64,000 nt of DNA from Bdellovibrionales bacterium (GCA_965262715.1 OZ253553.1:544001-608000); one strand, 5' to 3'; numbered from the stretch's first letter, positions 12,001 through 21,000 are shown. Numbers are program-made.

Positions 12001-15000
12001 GCAATCCAGCAGTCGGGCAATTAGTTCCCGGAAACCGGTTTCCCGGAAGCCAGATCCCTGGTAAATGGGGAATTCTAGGGGCTGGTTACCTTTCGAAGTT
12101 TTATTTAAACAGCTTATGTTGAATAAAATAGACATGAAGTTTAATGATAGAGGTAGAAGCATGGAGCTTCTCTTTTTCACTAACTGGCAGGCGTCCTCCG
12201 TGCCATGTATACTGTGACTTTTGATTTTATATAGAATAAAAATCTCTCTAAAAGTGTGTCTCATAAGGCATTGGACAAGAGCTAGTTCACAAGAGAAGCT
12301 GTATGCTTTTAATTTCAAGAACTTATCGCAAAAGTAAACAGCCCCTTAGTTATAAACTAAATGTTACTTTGCTTGTTTTTATCTTTAAAAAAAGATATTT
12401 AGATATAATTTGACTATTTATATCCTTAAATAAGGTTATTATATATTATTCTATTTGTTTTTATCCTTAAAAAAGGATATTATTATAAAAAAAAGGGTTA
12501 TTTATATGAAAAAAGGTATTGAAGAAACAGAGGTATCAAGATTTGGTTTGTTCATTAAACAAAAGCGTAAAAATAGAGGTATAACTCAAAAGGAGTTAGC
12601 TAGGCATGCAAGGGTCAGTTTTACATTGGTCAATCGTATAGAAAATGGAGATATAAAATTAAATATATCTTCTGTAAATAAAGTTTTGAAAGTTTTTGGA
12701 TGCGCACTTGCCCCTGTTCGTTTAGAGATTAAAGAATGAAAAATATTGCAAATGAAGAGAATTATATGTCAGAGATAAAAAAAATAATAAATACAAAGAA
12801 GGCTTGGGTTTATTTAAGAGATATTCTAGCAGGGGAGCTTGAAAAATCCGATGAGGCTTCTGTAGTTTTTAAATTCACTTATTTTAAAGATTATTTAGAA
12901 AGTCAAAACCCAGAAATAGCTCGAGCTTTTCCTAAAAGAAAAGAATCTTATATCAGTTCAGATTTACACCCTTTTTTTGATAATCTTATTGTTGAAGGAT
13001 GGTTATTAACATATACAGAAAAACTTTTACATATTCATAAATTAGATCGTTTCAAACTGCTTATGGCTACAGGAAGCGCTCCTATTGGGGCTGTAAGTGT
13101 GAGACCTGTTTATAATCAACAACCTATCAATATGACTGAAGTTCTTTTTAATAAAAACACAGAAGTTCACTTTATTAAAGAACCTAATAAGATGAGAGAT
13201 ACATTTCATTTTTGTCCATCTTGTTTTCGGGAATTAGGAGGGGATGAAGTGCATAGAAAGTGTACTATAGCTATGTGGGGCACAACAAGAAAGTTGAAAT
13301 TAAAAATAAATAAAGATAGTCCTGATGAAATGTTTGGATCTACTATTTATGGAGGTTCTATATCTGGTCATCAAAAAAAGGGAATGTTTAAAATCAACAG
13401 CAGGACAGGTGAATTGGTACCTACACCTGATAGAGCAACTCATATCTTAAAGCCATCTGGACATTTACCAGAGTTGCCAGAAAATGAACATGTCACAATG
13501 GCTATTGCAAAAGCTTTGAAATTTCCTACACCTTCGTTTGATTTGTTGGAATTTGAAGGCATAGGGAGAGTGTTTGCCACTGCTCGCTTTGATCGCAGTT
13601 TGGATGGAATGAGATTGCCATTGATGCAAGAGGATATGTGTCAGGTTATAGGGGTTTCAAGTGATAGAAAATATGATCTAAGTTATGAGAAGATTGCAAA
13701 AGCAATTAGAAAACACAGCTTGGCGCCTTTGGTTGATCTTTATGATTTTTATCGTAGGTTTGTTTTTTGTTATCTTGTGCTTAATGGGGATATGCACTTA
13801 AAAAATTGGTCTTTACTTGAAAGTCAAAAAGAGTTAGGTAGCTTTGTATTAGCGCCCTGTTACGATCTTTTAAATACAAGAATTTTTTTATCAAGAGAGT
13901 TAACGGATATAGCTCTACAGTTGAATGGAAAAGATAGGAATCTTACTAAAAAGGATATTTCCTATTTTGGTAAAGATATTGGTCTTAGTGCTGAAACTAT
14001 TGAACTTATTTTTAGCGAGCTTTCAAGCTGGTTGGAGGTGATTAAAAAATACATAAATTTGTGTTTGCTTAGTAAGAAGTCAAAAGAAGCTTACCTTGAA
14101 GGTGTTTATAAAAGGTATAACATTTTATTAAAGAAATAAAAAATATCAATTATTATTTATACAAAGTTATTTTCCGGGAAACAGGCAACCCGGCAGTCAG
14201 TTTCCGGGATCCATTCAGTCCATTCTTGAGAGCTAGATTATAGTTTATCTAAAAAGATATAGATGAAACTTTCTACTTTCTTAATTCCTAAATCCCGGAG
14301 TTCAGTTTCACAGAGACCGGATTCCGGGTAAAAAGAAGTTCTAGAAGCCATCTCAAAAATGCAGCTAGAGATAACAATTTTAGAAAAAATACCAGCTTTA
14401 TATTATACAAAGAATTCCATGAGATGGCCTTTACTCAAAATGAATAGAAGACAAGCCTCTCGAGGCAAGCCTTTTTGAGGATTGCCCATGAAATAAATCT
14501 AGGTACTGATCCGATGGCAAGAATAAAGTTTCCCTAACATTGTGTTAAGAAACAAGAAGATCCTCCCTACTAAAATGCATTAGCCTTTCTAGGCAGTAAG
14601 CTATTTGCTGACGATGTGAACCGCCTGAGCTGACTACCAGAAAGTCGCCAGAGGCTAGCCTCGAGAGGCGAGATGCATTTTAGAGAAAAAAAAGCAGGTT
14701 CATTTTGAGGAAGACAGCTTTTTTATATAAGAAATTAGAGGTAATAGGTACAAATGTTCATAGACTTTTACTGAAACAGCACGATTCCCTTAACATGATG
14801 TTAAATAATGAGGAGTATCTGGTTTACTAAAATGCATCAGGCTTTCCAGGTAGTCAGCTATTTGCTGACGATGTGAACCGCCTGAGCTGACTACCAGAAA
14901 GTCGCCAGAGGCTCGCCTCGAGAGGCGAGATGCATTTTAGTGAAAAAAAAGCAGGTTTATTTTGAGGAAGACAGCTCTTTTATATAAGAAATTAGAGGTA

Positions 15001-18000: not shown

Positions 18001-21000
18001 CTCGAGAGGCGAGATGCATTTTAGTGAAAAAAAAGCAGGTTCATTTTGAGGAAGACAGCTCTTTTATATAAGAAATTAGAGGTAATAGGTACAAACGTTC
18101 ATAGACTTTTACTGAAACAGCACGATTCCCTTAACATGATGTTAAATAATGAGGAGTATCTCGTTTACTAAAATGCATCAGGCTTTCTAGGTAGTCAGCT
18201 ATTTGCTGACGATGTGAATCGTCAGGCTGACTACCAGAAAGTCGCCAGTCAGGCTGACTACCAGAAAGTCGCCAGAGGCGAGATGCATTTTAGTGAAAAT
18301 AGTTAGATAAAGTTATGAACCACTGGAAATGTTTATTAAGTTTTTATTTTTGAGACCAGTTCTAATTAAGTTGTATCATGCTACTGTGACAGTTAAGTTA
18401 ATGTGTGCATCTCTTAACTTGTCTTGGAGTGCAAGTTGAATCCAATATGCTTCTGGTTCTCCAATAGCACAAGCAATATTTTTTGCTGTTGTAGGAGATG
18501 GGATCTTCTTTCCTTTCTCAATATCAGAAAGACTTTGAACAGATAGTCCCAATAGAGCAGCACATTTACGTAAGGTTAAATTACGACATTGCCTTTCTGA
18601 AGCAATAGCAGATGCAAAAGTGAGTCTTCCAATATCTCGACTAAGTTCTTTTGTTCCATATTTTATCGTATATTTTTTCTTTGCCATTGTATTTCCTTTA
18701 ATATTTGTGTTTGTGCACTCAAATTATAATAATAAAATTTATATTTGCATCTATTTTTATGTTTTTTCCGGTAGTCCGGTAAACCGGTAGTCGGGCCATC
18801 AGTTCCCGGAAACCGGTTTCACGGAGGCCAGATCCCGGATAAAAAAAGAAACCTTTTGTAAAATATATTGTAACCTCTTGACTATTTGAATAAAAAACAC
18901 ATTCATTTTCCTTAAAATAAACTAACTTCTGTTTCACTAAAATGCATCTGGCCTCTGGCCATTTTCTGGCGATGACCCTGACATGTTTACACTGTCAGTA
19001 TGGTCATCGCCTGGAAAAATTGATGCATTTTAGTAGGGAGGATATCTTCATTGTCTTACGTCATGTTAGGGAAATCCTTGTTGTTTATCAGTCAGCCTGA
19101 CGGGTCGTAGCGTCAGTAAAAAGCTGATTGCCTCAAAAATTCATTTATTTTAAGGAGGGAGATATTCTTTATGTTCTTACATCATGTTAAGGAAAACTTT
19201 CTATAATGTATTTTAAAGATTCATAACTACTTAAACATTTTTCCAAGTTCCCAGAGATCGGATTCCCGGAGGCCATGTCCCGGATAAAAAAAGAAAACTT
19301 TTATAAAATATATTGTAACCCCTTGACTATTTGAATAAAAAACACATCTTATAAGAGCGGATGTATCCAAATGGGGTCTATTCTTTCGTCTTATTATAAA
19401 GCAATAAATAGGTTTGAGTATGCAAGAAGATTATTATGATGTTTTAGGTGTTCCTCGTCAGGCTGGGCAGTCGGATATTAAAAAAGCTTACAGGCAGTTA
19501 GCATTAAAGTATCATCCTGATAGAAACCCTAATGACAAGAATGCTGAAGAAAAATTCAAAAAAGCTGCAGAGGCTTATGACGTGCTTGGTAATCCTGAAA
19601 AGCGCAGTCGGTATGATCAATTTGGACATGCTGCATTTCAGCAGACTGGTGGTCAGTATTCTGGATCTATGAATTTAAACGATATATTTTCAAATTTTGG
19701 CGATGTTTTCGAAGACTTTTTCAGCGGAGGTATGGGAGGTGGAAGTTCAAGACAAAGATCAAGATCACACCAAGGGGCAGACCTTCGTTATACATTAGAA
19801 ATTACAATAGAAGATGTCATCAATGGTTTTGAAGAGAGTATCGAGTTTGATTGTGAAGAAAACTGTTTGACATGTGAAGGTAGTGGAGCAGATCCAAAGC
19901 ATGGCTTAGAGATATGTCAAAAGTGTAACGGAACGGGACAAGTTGTTCGTTCTCAAGGTTTTTTTTCTATGGCCTCTACTTGCGCACATTGCAGAGGTCA
20001 AGGCCAGAGAGTTAAATACCCTTGTCATTCTTGTGGAGGGCAGGGCCGATCTGTAAAGCCTAAAAAGGTTGAGGTGAAGGTACCAAAAGGGGTGGATTCA
20101 GGGCTAAAATTAAGATATGAAGGTGAAGGGGAAGGTGGATATAATAAGGGTACTCATGGAGATCTTTATGTGGAAATCCATGTTCTAGACCATAAAGAGT
20201 TTGAAAGAAAAGATGATGATCTCTATGGAGAGGTTCATATCTCATATCTTCAGGCTATTTTAGGGACTCATATTCAGGTCAATACACTTGATGGCAAAAA
20301 GAAGCTTAAAATTCCTTTAGGTACACAACCAAATCAACTGCTCCGGCTCTCTGGCTTAGGCATCCCTCACCTAGACTTAAAAAGCAGGTCTTTTATTAAA
20401 ACCAAAGGACGTGGAGATTTACTTTTTACTGTTTTTGTAGATTTGCCTAAAAAGCCTAAAAAGCAGGAAGAAAAACTTTTAAGACAAATTGCAGAAATGA
20501 AAAAGGAAGATATCAGTGAGTCTCTAGGTTTTCTTGGAAAAAGATAAGTTATACCTTGACTGATTGAAATTCATAACCACATTATTTGAGTGACCATAAA
20601 AAACTAAGAAGGAGGATAGAAAGTGGGAAGGGTTATCGGAATTGACTTAGGAACAACAAATTCTTGTGTAGCTATTGTTGAAGATGGACAACCTGAGGTA
20701 CTCACAAATCAAGAGGGAGCTCGAACAACACCGTCTGTTGTTGCTTTTACAAAAGAAAATACAAGTTTAGTAGGTCAAATTGCTAAGAGACAATCGGTAA
20801 CAAATCCTGAAAACACTATTTATTCTGCAAAACGATTTATAGGTAAAAACTTTAATGAAGTTAAAAATGAAAAACACAGAATGCCTTATAAGATCATTCA
20901 AAAAGGTGATGGTTGTGCATTTGATATCAAAGGTGAAACCTATACTCCTGAACAAATTTCTTCAATTATTTTACAAAAATTAAAAGCTGCAGCAGAAGAT

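Follow-up and report, generated by a model that had tools for sequence, protein, structure and literature searches.

A polar, self-nesting structured repeat populates the intergenic DNA of one Bdellovibrio-related genus and forms long arrays

One question about the structured repeats of bacteria is how many of them spread with no obvious transposase. A genome of the order Bdellovibrionales (GCA_965262715.1; G000 below) raises it: in the window, a stretch of 64,000 nucleotides, a unit of 257 bp is repeated about 14 times. What is the repeated element, how did the array arise, and how do copies spread? An initial annotation had proposed an undescribed repeat that is interspersed, conserved in structure, and assembled into head-to-tail arrays, and it had likened these arrays to the attC/VCR cassette arrays of integrons. 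The description of the repeat stands, but the analogy does not.

The repeat family and where it occurs

With our own nhmmer profile, we found 454 non-overlapping copies in G000 (63,869 bp, or 2.2% of the genome); the profile matched 463 times in the genome and never in the reversed genome. Just 28 of the 454 copies overlap gene calls, which are crude, by more than 10%, in agreement with the roughly 460 mostly intergenic copies reported initially. Neighboring copies are indeed arranged head-to-tail: among those 600 bp or less apart, 213 are on the same strand and 20 are on opposite strands. Rfam gave no gathering-score match in the window, and none of the eight copies tested had a match below E = 1, as had been claimed. 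We found no description of the family, or of its link to four-helix-bundle genes (see below), in a literature search that reached few subscription journals.

The initial annotation described a hairpin of about 95 nt that is kept by compensatory changes. The paired changes were confirmed, but the fold is a three-way junction of about 150 nt and not one hairpin. In 57 copies, 30 of the 40 pairs in the four core helices have changed on both sides, the core-helix pairs are 94.6-98.2% paired, and none of 500 shuffles reached the paired fraction or the covariation score. Two proposed tail helices gained no support (covariation for only 1 of 6 pairs in each).

The strand that folds is the reverse complement of the strand on which the repeat was originally written, and it runs from tail to head. 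On the written strand, A-C outnumbers G-T (60 to 28 and 25 to 12 in two sets of copies); these wobble pairs are scarce, with 85 A-C and 40 G-T among 4,302 cells. GNNA loops are seen on the reverse strand in 37 of 47 and 26 of 28 of the copies that could be scored, and when 120 copies were folded as DNA, this strand was the better one in 89 versus 27. Of the 63 GNNA loops, 45 are GNRA and 18 are not; in the set from the sister genome G001 and sister contigs, 12 of 26 are GNYA. In sequence logos, the head edge is sharp and the tail edge fades, and the tail motif is strongly conserved. An imperfect inverted match of 12 nt connects the head and the tail; it lies a few bases in from each end, and the outer bases differ. 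A loose search for dif-like tails gave 29 non-specific matches.

The repeat fills gaps between genes in one genus. G001 has 189 copies in 400 kb of evenly spaced samples, for an estimated 1,200 copies and about 5.8% of the genome. A covariance model found the repeat in 3 of 151 genomes from the order and 1 of 151 from the phylum (20 candidates scored in each). A genome scan with an exact pattern identified at least 111 loci and, among the matches listed, all are in one Bdellovibrionales record; the exact pattern had no matches in viral and metagenome contigs. Searches of phages and plasmids gave no match to the repeat, and none was found in genome G002. Seven hits reported initially from G004 are likely a binning artifact: they are on three small contigs that are about 90% identical to, and syntenic with, G000. 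These contigs probably come from a sister species and were misbinned, so G004 is no evidence for a second genus. The presence of the repeat differs between such 90%-identical sister DNAs.

Between co-directional genes, the folded strand is on the mRNA strand in 87 clusters versus 52 (P = 0.004), which contradicts the earlier statement that there is no orientation bias relative to flanking genes. Bias by replication strand is slight: 103:72 at 20 kb, with no significant difference at 50 kb. The repeat is enriched directly past stop codons (23/213 versus 2.3%) and at the ends of tRNA genes (7 of 78, versus 33 of 4,236 CDS ends; P = 3e-6). As first noticed, five tRNA genes (of 39 in G000) are followed by a copy, at -2 to 8 nt from the 3' end; two more have a copy at the 5' end. 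At the G001 loci, 0 of 15 tRNA or tmRNA genes had a copy within 10 nt. Copies also interrupt four-helix-bundle genes and CRISPR repeats. A promoter or terminator role for the repeat was rejected, as counts in 14100-15400 were at chance level. The window holds a competence gene.

The array in the window

The window contains the following features:

6088..6233, minus strand: dispersed copy downstream of recA
14344..14429, no strand assigned: second, unrelated inverted-repeat element (about 90 nt) that adjoins the outer copy
14430..14517, minus strand: rest of the outer copy, consisting of 3' arms that are complementary to the spacer's head fragment
14521..14692, minus strand: last array copy, which entered the outer copy at its small loop and has a tail that belongs to a different subtype
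14568..18248, minus strand: tandem array, 257 bp x 14.3, 98% matches
14693..14775, minus strand: spacer, made of a short linker, about 45 nt of multicopy flank, and 26 nt of the older outer head
14776..14949, minus strand: representative array copy, head at 14949 and tail at 14776 (nhmmer E = 1.9e-42)
18221..18300, minus strand: the array's first head, which contains a 27-bp duplication and was inserted in the flank of the composite
18905..19202, plus strand: nested pair, with the outer head from 18905, an inner full copy at 18927-19080, a linker, and the outer remainder at 19089-19202
48964..49298, minus strand: two copies, head-to-tail
53986..54069, minus strand: partial copy, head half
58739..59253, plus strand: two copies downstream of murB, the first of which folds with z = -8.5

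Each array unit combines one copy of the repeat with an 83-nt spacer, and the unit folds with z = -4.3. The copy is about 174 nt long, including a 14-nt expansion of its small loop. The spacer matches 17 places beyond the array and includes the head fragment of an outer copy (14694-14718). The remainder of this outer copy matches an uninterrupted composite on the sister contig L183; the adjoining inverted-repeat element is 82% identical to the sister composite, and G000 contains 52 occurrences of this element's end word. The array is two copies that inserted in this older composite and were amplified afterwards. Its units are mosaics of two haplotypes: for instance, unit 5 is the same as unit 0 at 9 sites. 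In the nested pair at 18905..19202, the remainder arm matches the outer head at 11 of 12 positions and the inner head at 8 of 12.

We reproduced the annotated array, with its period of 257 bp and 14.3 units (98% matches in our analysis), and its multiplicity is backed by read depth, which is about 260 in the unit versus about 13-15 in the flanks (run X1) and 33 versus 2-4 (run X4, from another study). The ratios of about 20x and 8-16x compare with 16-18 expected word copies. No contig from four runs spans the array, so the exact number of units rests on the assembly; that the array as such is an assembly artifact is hardly credible given the read depths, the patterned variants of the units, and the presence of similar arrays in G001 and the sister contigs.

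More broadly, the repeat overlaps 27 of the 39 TRF arrays in G000 with a period of at least 100 and at least 93% matches. Array spacers are either fragments of other repeats or duplicated neighboring DNA; the 3' end of rpsQ is an example. The attC/VCR analogy fails because of this origin of the spacers, because RYYYAAC/GTTRRRY cores (as defined in extracts of PMC5027507) are present in 0 of 120 copies on either strand, and because there is no integron integrase: the tyrosine recombinases of G000 score 52.5 and 75.5 bits, versus a cut-off of 265. According to the same extracts, attC/VCR sites are also imperfect palindromes in direct orientation with strand-selective folding, but integron arrays hold distinct, mostly coding cassettes, whereas the spacers here are non-coding, derived from flanks, and identical within an array. 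The long arrays are a by-product of the spreading of the repeat, not gene-cassette arrays.

Polarity, junctions, and nesting

The two ends of the repeat differ, so it is polar. At the head, joints to target DNA fall within a span of about 8 nt; on the tail side there is variable cargo, and target DNA is deleted or duplicated. When empty and filled sites were compared using sister contigs, head junctions showed short microhomology, and tail sides carried up to about 330 nt of cargo along with loss of target DNA. The breaks at head junctions are ragged (-4 to -11 in 19 junctions from G000 and -3 to -10 in 10 from G001), and CT precedes the break in 5 of the 19 and 2 of the 10 host junctions. Seven of 22 arrays end within 3 nt of the head phase, including six that end into host DNA (about 0.6 expected). 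A general long target duplication was rejected, as just 15 of 149 leading copies have an upstream duplication (controls, 32/3000 and 40/2000).

In both G000 and G001, the repeat inserts preferentially at the small 3-nt loop of a resident copy. In G000, 45 of 77 cases (with 31 distinct strings) have a head 26 nt past an older head fragment; in G001, the distance is 26-27 nt in 99 of 161 cases. Pairing between the outer head and the downstream remainder is better than for shuffled sequences (P = 0.0008 in each genome); a remainder was present in 10 of 43 (G000) and 30 of 75 (G001) nested cases tested, and the inner head was the better match in 8 of the 30. In 102 of 107 copies, this loop reads TCT; CT also stands at the corresponding joint in the head consensus. 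Fold-back expansions at the small loop occur in 68 of the 454 copies in G000. Insertion 3' of hairpins in general was not enriched (P = 0.82). Because copies are related, the event counts overstate the number of independent insertions. The polarity, the small-loop nesting, and the identity of the folded strand with its GNNA loops are new findings.

Candidate mechanisms and related repeats

Our preferred explanation, which we hold tentatively and at slightly less than an even chance, is that the repeat is a non-autonomous polar "copy-in" element that spreads by host template switching and nests at small loops, with arrays that grow by unequal exchange. The tail-to-head strand would fold into the three-way junction and leave about 10 nt unpaired as an overhang at the head end. 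A free chromosomal 3' end, from a nick or a stalled nascent strand, would land on the overhang via 0-6 bases of microhomology, be extended through the repeat and a variable stretch of its flank, and rejoin the target through microhomology or through homology with a resident copy. A return point downstream would delete target DNA, one upstream would duplicate it, and one in phase would yield a tandem unit. Nesting and head-to-tail clusters would follow because the 3-nt loop of resident copies favors such 3' ends, and long arrays would reflect later growth by unequal exchange between neighboring copies. We infer that the template is single-stranded DNA, that host replication or repair enzymes switch templates with no dedicated transposase, and that unequal exchange enlarges the arrays. 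An RNA template would also fit because the folded strand favors the mRNA strand. Host template switching alone leaves the conservation of the tail motif unexplained, and this conservation suggests a candidate protein-binding site.

Alternatively, a RAYT-like Y1 (HUH) enzyme, since lost or unassembled, might nick the folded strand and prime local amplification, as for REP/BIME repeats; we consider this unlikely but a real possibility. In the BIME model, a nick, 3' extension, and a second cut at a variable linker site add a unit (PMC3333891). This model predicts in-phase units, as observed at array ends; TnpA-REP cleaves at CT or CA (PMC8266576), and CT is found in the hot-spot loop and at the same joint of the head; and REPs persist in E. 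coli strains after gene loss (PMC3333891). However, CT precedes few of the host breaks, which are scattered across 8 nt, and the 5' foot lacks a GTAG tag. G000 has just one Y1 enzyme, which is of the IS200 type and has ends of its own, G001 has no match to Y1, RVT_1, or IS110, and we found no RAYT gene flanked by the repeat (the genomes are 90-93% complete). A profile from four Y1 proteins found nothing else below E = 0.09 in 4,874 six-frame segments, and RAYT-like genes are present in G002, where the repeat has no match. Across five genomes, there was no match to Rep_trans or AEP primase, nor to Y2_Tnp or Rep_1, for which the controls also gave no match. IS110 was found only in G002, and GIY-YIG had one match per genome, in a frame of 610-650 residues. 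Rpn nucleases, present at 9 of 11 repeat-centered loci in G001 (a biased sample), were rejected: they are not enriched near the repeat in G000 (2/6 and 2/15 loci) and are numerous in repeat-free G022. In all, these searches yielded no enzyme that copies the repeat, and no intermediate of copying was seen.

It is decidedly unlikely that the repeat is RNA templated and SINE-like, with read-through transcripts trimmed to the stem base and copied by a reverse transcriptase from the target's 3' end. The mRNA-strand preference, the ragged fixed end opposite a variable end with cargo, the GNRA loops, the group II intron and retron reverse transcriptases of G000, and the comparable junction logic of DGR retrohoming (PMC3240598) would fit, but G001, which is richest in copies, has no RVT_1 match, wobble pairs are few, and GNYA loops are frequent in the G001 and sister set. 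A host-selected RNA or DNA signal (for mRNA stability, termination, or RNase III) that spreads by gene conversion or transformation, with no self-copying, is improbable: the enrichment after stop codons and at tRNA ends, the mRNA-strand bias, and the competence gene are consistent with it, but copies break four-helix-bundle genes and CRISPR repeats, nest in one another, vary between 90%-identical sister DNAs, and do not adjoin tRNA or tmRNA genes at the G001 loci. Highly improbable is a MITE moved by a resident DDE transposase or an attC-like cassette site moved by a tyrosine recombinase. The inverted match of head and tail and the many IS copies in G000 hint at these, but there is no fixed target duplication (at best 16/257 for 4-mers and 8/257 for 5-mers, over all offsets), the ends are asymmetric, none of the IS ends listed for G000 resembles the repeat by eye, attC cores are absent, and each genome has only two tyrosine recombinases, of which neither in G000 is an integron integrase.

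Cassettes for 23S rRNA intervening-sequence proteins (PF05635, TIGR02436; PDB 2GSC; extracts of PMC4990558) encode four-helix bundles and are, like the repeat, multi-copy; they are its commonest neighbor. In G000, 10 of 15 clustered four-helix-bundle genes are within 300 bp of the repeat, versus 14.3% of 2,549 genes, which bears out the proximity noticed in the initial annotation. All 14 cassettes in G001 adjoin the repeat, the nearest copy is antisense in 13, and at least 7 end in the repeat's own tail motif; pairwise differences in the G001 gene are 478 synonymous versus 120 non-synonymous. However, the cassettes are flanked by their own 8-base word and also spread without the repeat. Their expansion was rejected as a marker for the repeat, as 4 other genomes among 41 have 6-18 matches and no repeat, and the core loci of G004 likewise lack it. 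The PF05635 protein may resemble the DGR accessory protein Avd. By this analogy, the repeat may be transposase-free mobile DNA whose template switching is aided by the PF05635 protein as a single-strand chaperone, with the gene cassette as an "autonomous" partner, which we regard as quite unlikely.

Rickettsia palindromic elements insert in-frame in genes, which is not the rule for this repeat. In size range, genus restriction, and palindromy, these elements and ERIC, BOX, and RUP are similar to the repeat, going by extracts of PMC3184786; BOX is also modular and tandem, but ERIC and RUP are bounded by terminal inverted repeats and duplicate their target. The repeat is best classed with REP/BIME- or bcr1-like repeats, as a variant. 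Like REP/BIME and REPIN (extracts of PMC3333891, PMC8266576, PMC3116915, PMC3337134, and PMC3733652), it has hundreds of structured intergenic copies with one active strand and is enriched after genes. Copies insert in or beside existing ones, and particular loci hold tandem arrays whose nearly identical units include flanking DNA. In contrast to the 20- to 40-nt hairpins or inverted doublets in these sources, it is a single 150-nt polar three-way junction with head-to-tail neighbors. On the written strand, none of 120 copies carries the GTAG of REPs at the 5' foot, this tag is outside the folded strand's eight commonest tetramers, CT precedes only 7 of 29 host junctions, and a flanked RAYT gene was not found. 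The bcr1 repeat of the Bacillus cereus group (extracts of PMC3184786) is also about 155 bp, with a branched fold, compensatory changes, variable genomic positions, and an unclear mobilizer, but it has 5-bp direct repeats in each case, whereas our repeat has none and has a variable cargo side and fixed-loop nesting.

For the question of how structured repeats spread, this repeat has a readable record: a fixed entry end, an internal hot spot, hundreds of junctions, and 90%-identical sister DNA. In G001, about 5.8% of the genome is repeat without a recognized mobilizer, and a direct test is possible. Since copies disrupt CRISPR repeats and genes and duplicate gene ends, the repeat reshapes the genome. 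It also ties the mobilizer question to a four-helix-bundle family of unknown function: if the PF05635 protein does aid template switching, this would give a function to a long-unexplained family and a mechanism for repeats without a known mobilizer.

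Distribution and copy number of the repeat

The repeat, an intergenic element of about 150 nt with a fixed entry end (the head) and an opposite end that carries variable cargo (the tail), was found by DNA search in just 3 of 41 genomes: the studied genome (G000), a relative that is richest in it (G001), and G004. A covariance model found it in 3 of 151 genomes and in 1 of 151 in a sample of the phylum (20 candidates scored per genome). The G004 matches are confined to contigs C1, C4, and C11 (loci L008-L010 and L183-L185). These share synteny and about 90% identity with G000, ribosomal protein operon included; 14 other G004 regions show neither this similarity nor the repeat. 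Judging from these comparisons, the three contigs are probably misbinned DNA from a sister species (hereafter, sister contigs). On this reading, G004 is no evidence for a second genus, and all known members of the family come from a single one. No copies turned up in pattern scans of viral and metagenome contigs or in BLAST searches of phages and plasmids, and all matches listed from a scan of a genome collection fall in one record.

A profile built from motif-anchored copies and run on the 2.94-Mb G000 gave 463 matches, with none in the reversed genome. After overlap removal, 454 copies (63,869 bp) remained, and 28 of these overlap gene calls, which are crude, by more than 10%. Of 233 neighboring pairs at most 600 bp apart, 213 share a strand, and the repeat overlaps 27 of 39 long-period TRF arrays. 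The roughly 460 copies described in the initial annotation, mostly intergenic and nearly always head-to-tail, are confirmed. In G001, twenty evenly spaced 20-kb samples contain 189 matches (5.8% of bases), which extrapolates to about 1,200 copies.

Fold and folded strand

In 57 copies, the core forms a three-way junction: a stem closes it, and from it branch a short hairpin (5 bp, 3-nt loop) and a long arm that ends in a hairpin of its own. Both sides vary in 30 of the 40 core pairs, and the paired share of cells is 94.6-98.2%; none of 500 shuffles came up to the observed paired fraction or covariation score, and pairing dropped to 32-51% in slid controls. So the compensatory changes claimed earlier are real, but the shape is not one hairpin. 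Two proposed tail helices were unsupported by the covariation test on these copies. The tail is conserved at the sequence level. As reported before, no Rfam family matched the window or the tested copies.

The strand that folds, running from tail to head, is the reverse complement of the strand first written down. On the written strand, A-C mismatches exceed G-T mismatches (60:28 in 85 G000 copies and 25:12 in 35 G001 or sister copies); the reverse strand has a GNNA terminal loop in 37 of the 47 copies that could be scored in the first set and in 26 of 28 in the second; and it folds better (89 versus 27 of 120 copies with DNA parameters, 75 versus 44 copies with RNA parameters). GNYA loops are stable in DNA and are not favored in RNA. 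Because 18 of the 63 GNNA loops depart from GNRA and few wobble pairs occur, we lean toward single-stranded DNA as the folded form. However, of 139 clusters between co-directional genes, 87 have the folded strand on the mRNA strand (P = 0.004), which counts against this and contradicts the earlier statement that there is no orientation bias toward flanking genes.

Nesting, the window array, and junctions with host DNA

In G000, 45 of 77 cases have an older head fragment exactly 26 nt before the head (31 distinct strings, the window array entering the count more than once); in the G001 loci, 99 of 161 cases, from 412 distinct heads, have one 26-27 nt before it. At this spacing, the joint falls within the small hairpin's 3-nt loop, and that loop reads TCT in 102 of 107 copies. 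A remainder of the outer copy follows the inner tail in 10 of 43 cases in G000 and 30 of 75 in G001. Since these remainders pair with the outer head better than with shuffled heads (P = 0.0008 in each genome) and prefer the outer over the inner head (7:0 and 18:8, respectively), these cases are insertions into resident copies. Self-targeting of the small loop explains the head-to-tail clusters. In 68 of 454 copies, this loop is also expanded by a 14-nt fold-back.

The window array (14568-18248) has a period of 257 bp, 14.3 copies, and 98% matches (TRF). Contigs of the array unit had a depth of about 260 versus 13-15 for the flanks in public run X1, possibly the source sample, and 33 versus 2-4 in run X4, from another study; 16-18 word copies are expected. 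This depth supports the multiplicity first noted; no public-run contig spans the whole array. In a sister contig, the flank and an outer repeat copy form an uninterrupted composite with a second inverted-repeat element. The pieces of this composite lie in the window at 18299-18353, in every spacer, and at 14332-14447, along with two inner copies:

head at 18300: inner copy entering the composite flank
14521-14692: inner copy in the small loop of the outer copy

The DNA between them was subsequently amplified into the array. The units are mosaics of two haplotypes, as expected from unequal exchange, by which we infer the amplification occurred. At rpsQ-rplN, G000 and the sister alike have a duplicated rpsQ 3' end as the spacer. 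The spacers are thus debris rather than cassettes, and the suggested likeness to attC/VCR cassette arrays fails: attC cores, as defined in PMC5027507, are absent from all 120 copies, and neither G000 tyrosine recombinase qualifies as an integron integrase.

A HipA-like gene (12736-14139) and a small helix-turn-helix gene (18376-18687) flank the array; no link to either was found. Two further inverted-repeat families (at 14344-14429 and genome-wide, with end words found 52 and 44 times in G000) are frequent cargo alongside the repeat, and one also lies at the ends of IS30-like copies. Runs of CCGG-containing 8-base words lie at 14170-14330, 18760-18840, and 19240-19290 without a gene; the words are identical to those flanking four-helix-bundle genes.

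In sequence logos, the repeat begins abruptly at the head and fades out at the tail. We compared empty and filled sites between G000 and the sister contigs. For a sister copy downstream of recG, the head joint lies in a T run, the tail carries about 330 nt of cargo, and about 10 nt of target is lost; another head has 6 nt of microhomology at its joint. No fixed target duplication accompanies the copies; longer upstream duplications occur at 15 of 149 leading copies, versus 1-2% in controls. The break from spacer to host lies 4-11 nt ahead of the head anchor at 19 junctions in G000 (CT before the break in 5) and 3-10 nt ahead at 10 junctions in G001 (CT in 2); because the probe was anchored at -12, this gauges spread, not phase. 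Seven of 22 arrays (6 into host DNA) end within 3 nt of the head phase, versus about 0.6 expected.

Copies lie within 10 nt of 7 of 78 tRNA ends in G000, versus 33 of 4,236 CDS ends, in line with the reported abutment. In the G001 loci, 0 of 15 tRNA or tmRNA genes have a copy this close, though a head fragment follows one of them. A stop codon precedes the head in 23 of 213 leading copies, versus 2.3%, although some gene calls may be spurious. tRNA-Pro 3' ends host a divergent subfamily (L184:1340-1689 in the sister; G000:C1:937536 and 2823944) with about 30 nt of the tRNA end duplicated. Copies also interrupt the repeats of a CRISPR array (G000:C1:2607100-2608500 and 2693500-2694300), always entering at the same position; in one case, 9 bp are duplicated. 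At sister locus L008:7607-14815, the rplN 3' part occurs three times between paralogous cargo genes, resembling attachment-site duplications.

Four-helix-bundle genes, enzymes, and a possible route of copying

The four-helix-bundle genes match PF05635 and TIGR02436, with a weak match to PDB 2GSC; the protein family has no known function (PMC4990558). As annotated initially, they lie near the repeat (10 of 15 in G000; 14 of 14 in G001, versus 81 of 261 background genes), but paralogues are recent relatives and hence not independent events. In G001, the cassette lies antisense behind the repeat tail, and the tail motif follows it in at least 7 of the eleven loci listed. Seven of 19 G000 matches have no repeat copy within 1.2 kb. 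The gene family is also expanded without the repeat in the G004 core, G021, G025, G026, and G031. We dropped the idea that the cassette drives the repeat; we read the gene as a cassette in its own right, which the repeat also uses as target or cargo. In both G000 (for example, C1:923197, 818418, and 1349310) and G001 (L113, L036, L012, and L042), the repeat has entered the gene antisense at almost identical sites; these insertions seem to be independent because their linkers differ. In G025, G031, and G035 (L201, L202), the genes form divergent pairs that share a palindromic leader.

The only Y1 enzyme of G000 is an IS200 transposase with its own ends, and its reverse transcriptases belong to a group II intron and a retron. 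At G000:C1:2650522-2652294, a Retron St85-type reverse transcriptase fused to its effector-like domain adjoins tRNA-Asp and a repeat copy. Both the G000 and G001 assemblies are 90-93% complete; searches of G001 gave no match to Y1, RVT_1, or IS110, and its tyrosine recombinases number only two. Neither Rep_trans nor AEP primase turned up in the five family genomes, and the controls for the Y2 and Rep_1 searches were silent.

Our tentative reading is that the repeat was copied in by template switching on the folded single strand. Copying would enter on the unpaired head overhang and exit at a variable point; nesting would then occur at the small loop of resident copies, with unequal exchange coming last. 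The BIME amplification model (PMC3333891) and REPIN clusters (PMC3116915) work in a similar way. The repeat nevertheless differs from REP, BIME, and REPIN elements (PMC3733652, PMC8266576, PMC3337134, and PMC6006769) in the tag, the doublet, and the enzyme. That a lost RAYT-like enzyme moved the repeat is rather unlikely. An RNA-templated route would share the junction logic described in PMC3240598, and we consider it improbable. The closest element in size and fold is bcr1, which bears 5-bp direct repeats (PMC3184786).

A search of largely open-access literature found no description of this family. The repeat is set apart from ordinary repeats by its polar junction anatomy, its internal hot spot, its very high load in G001 without a recognized mobilizer, and its tie to four-helix-bundle genes.
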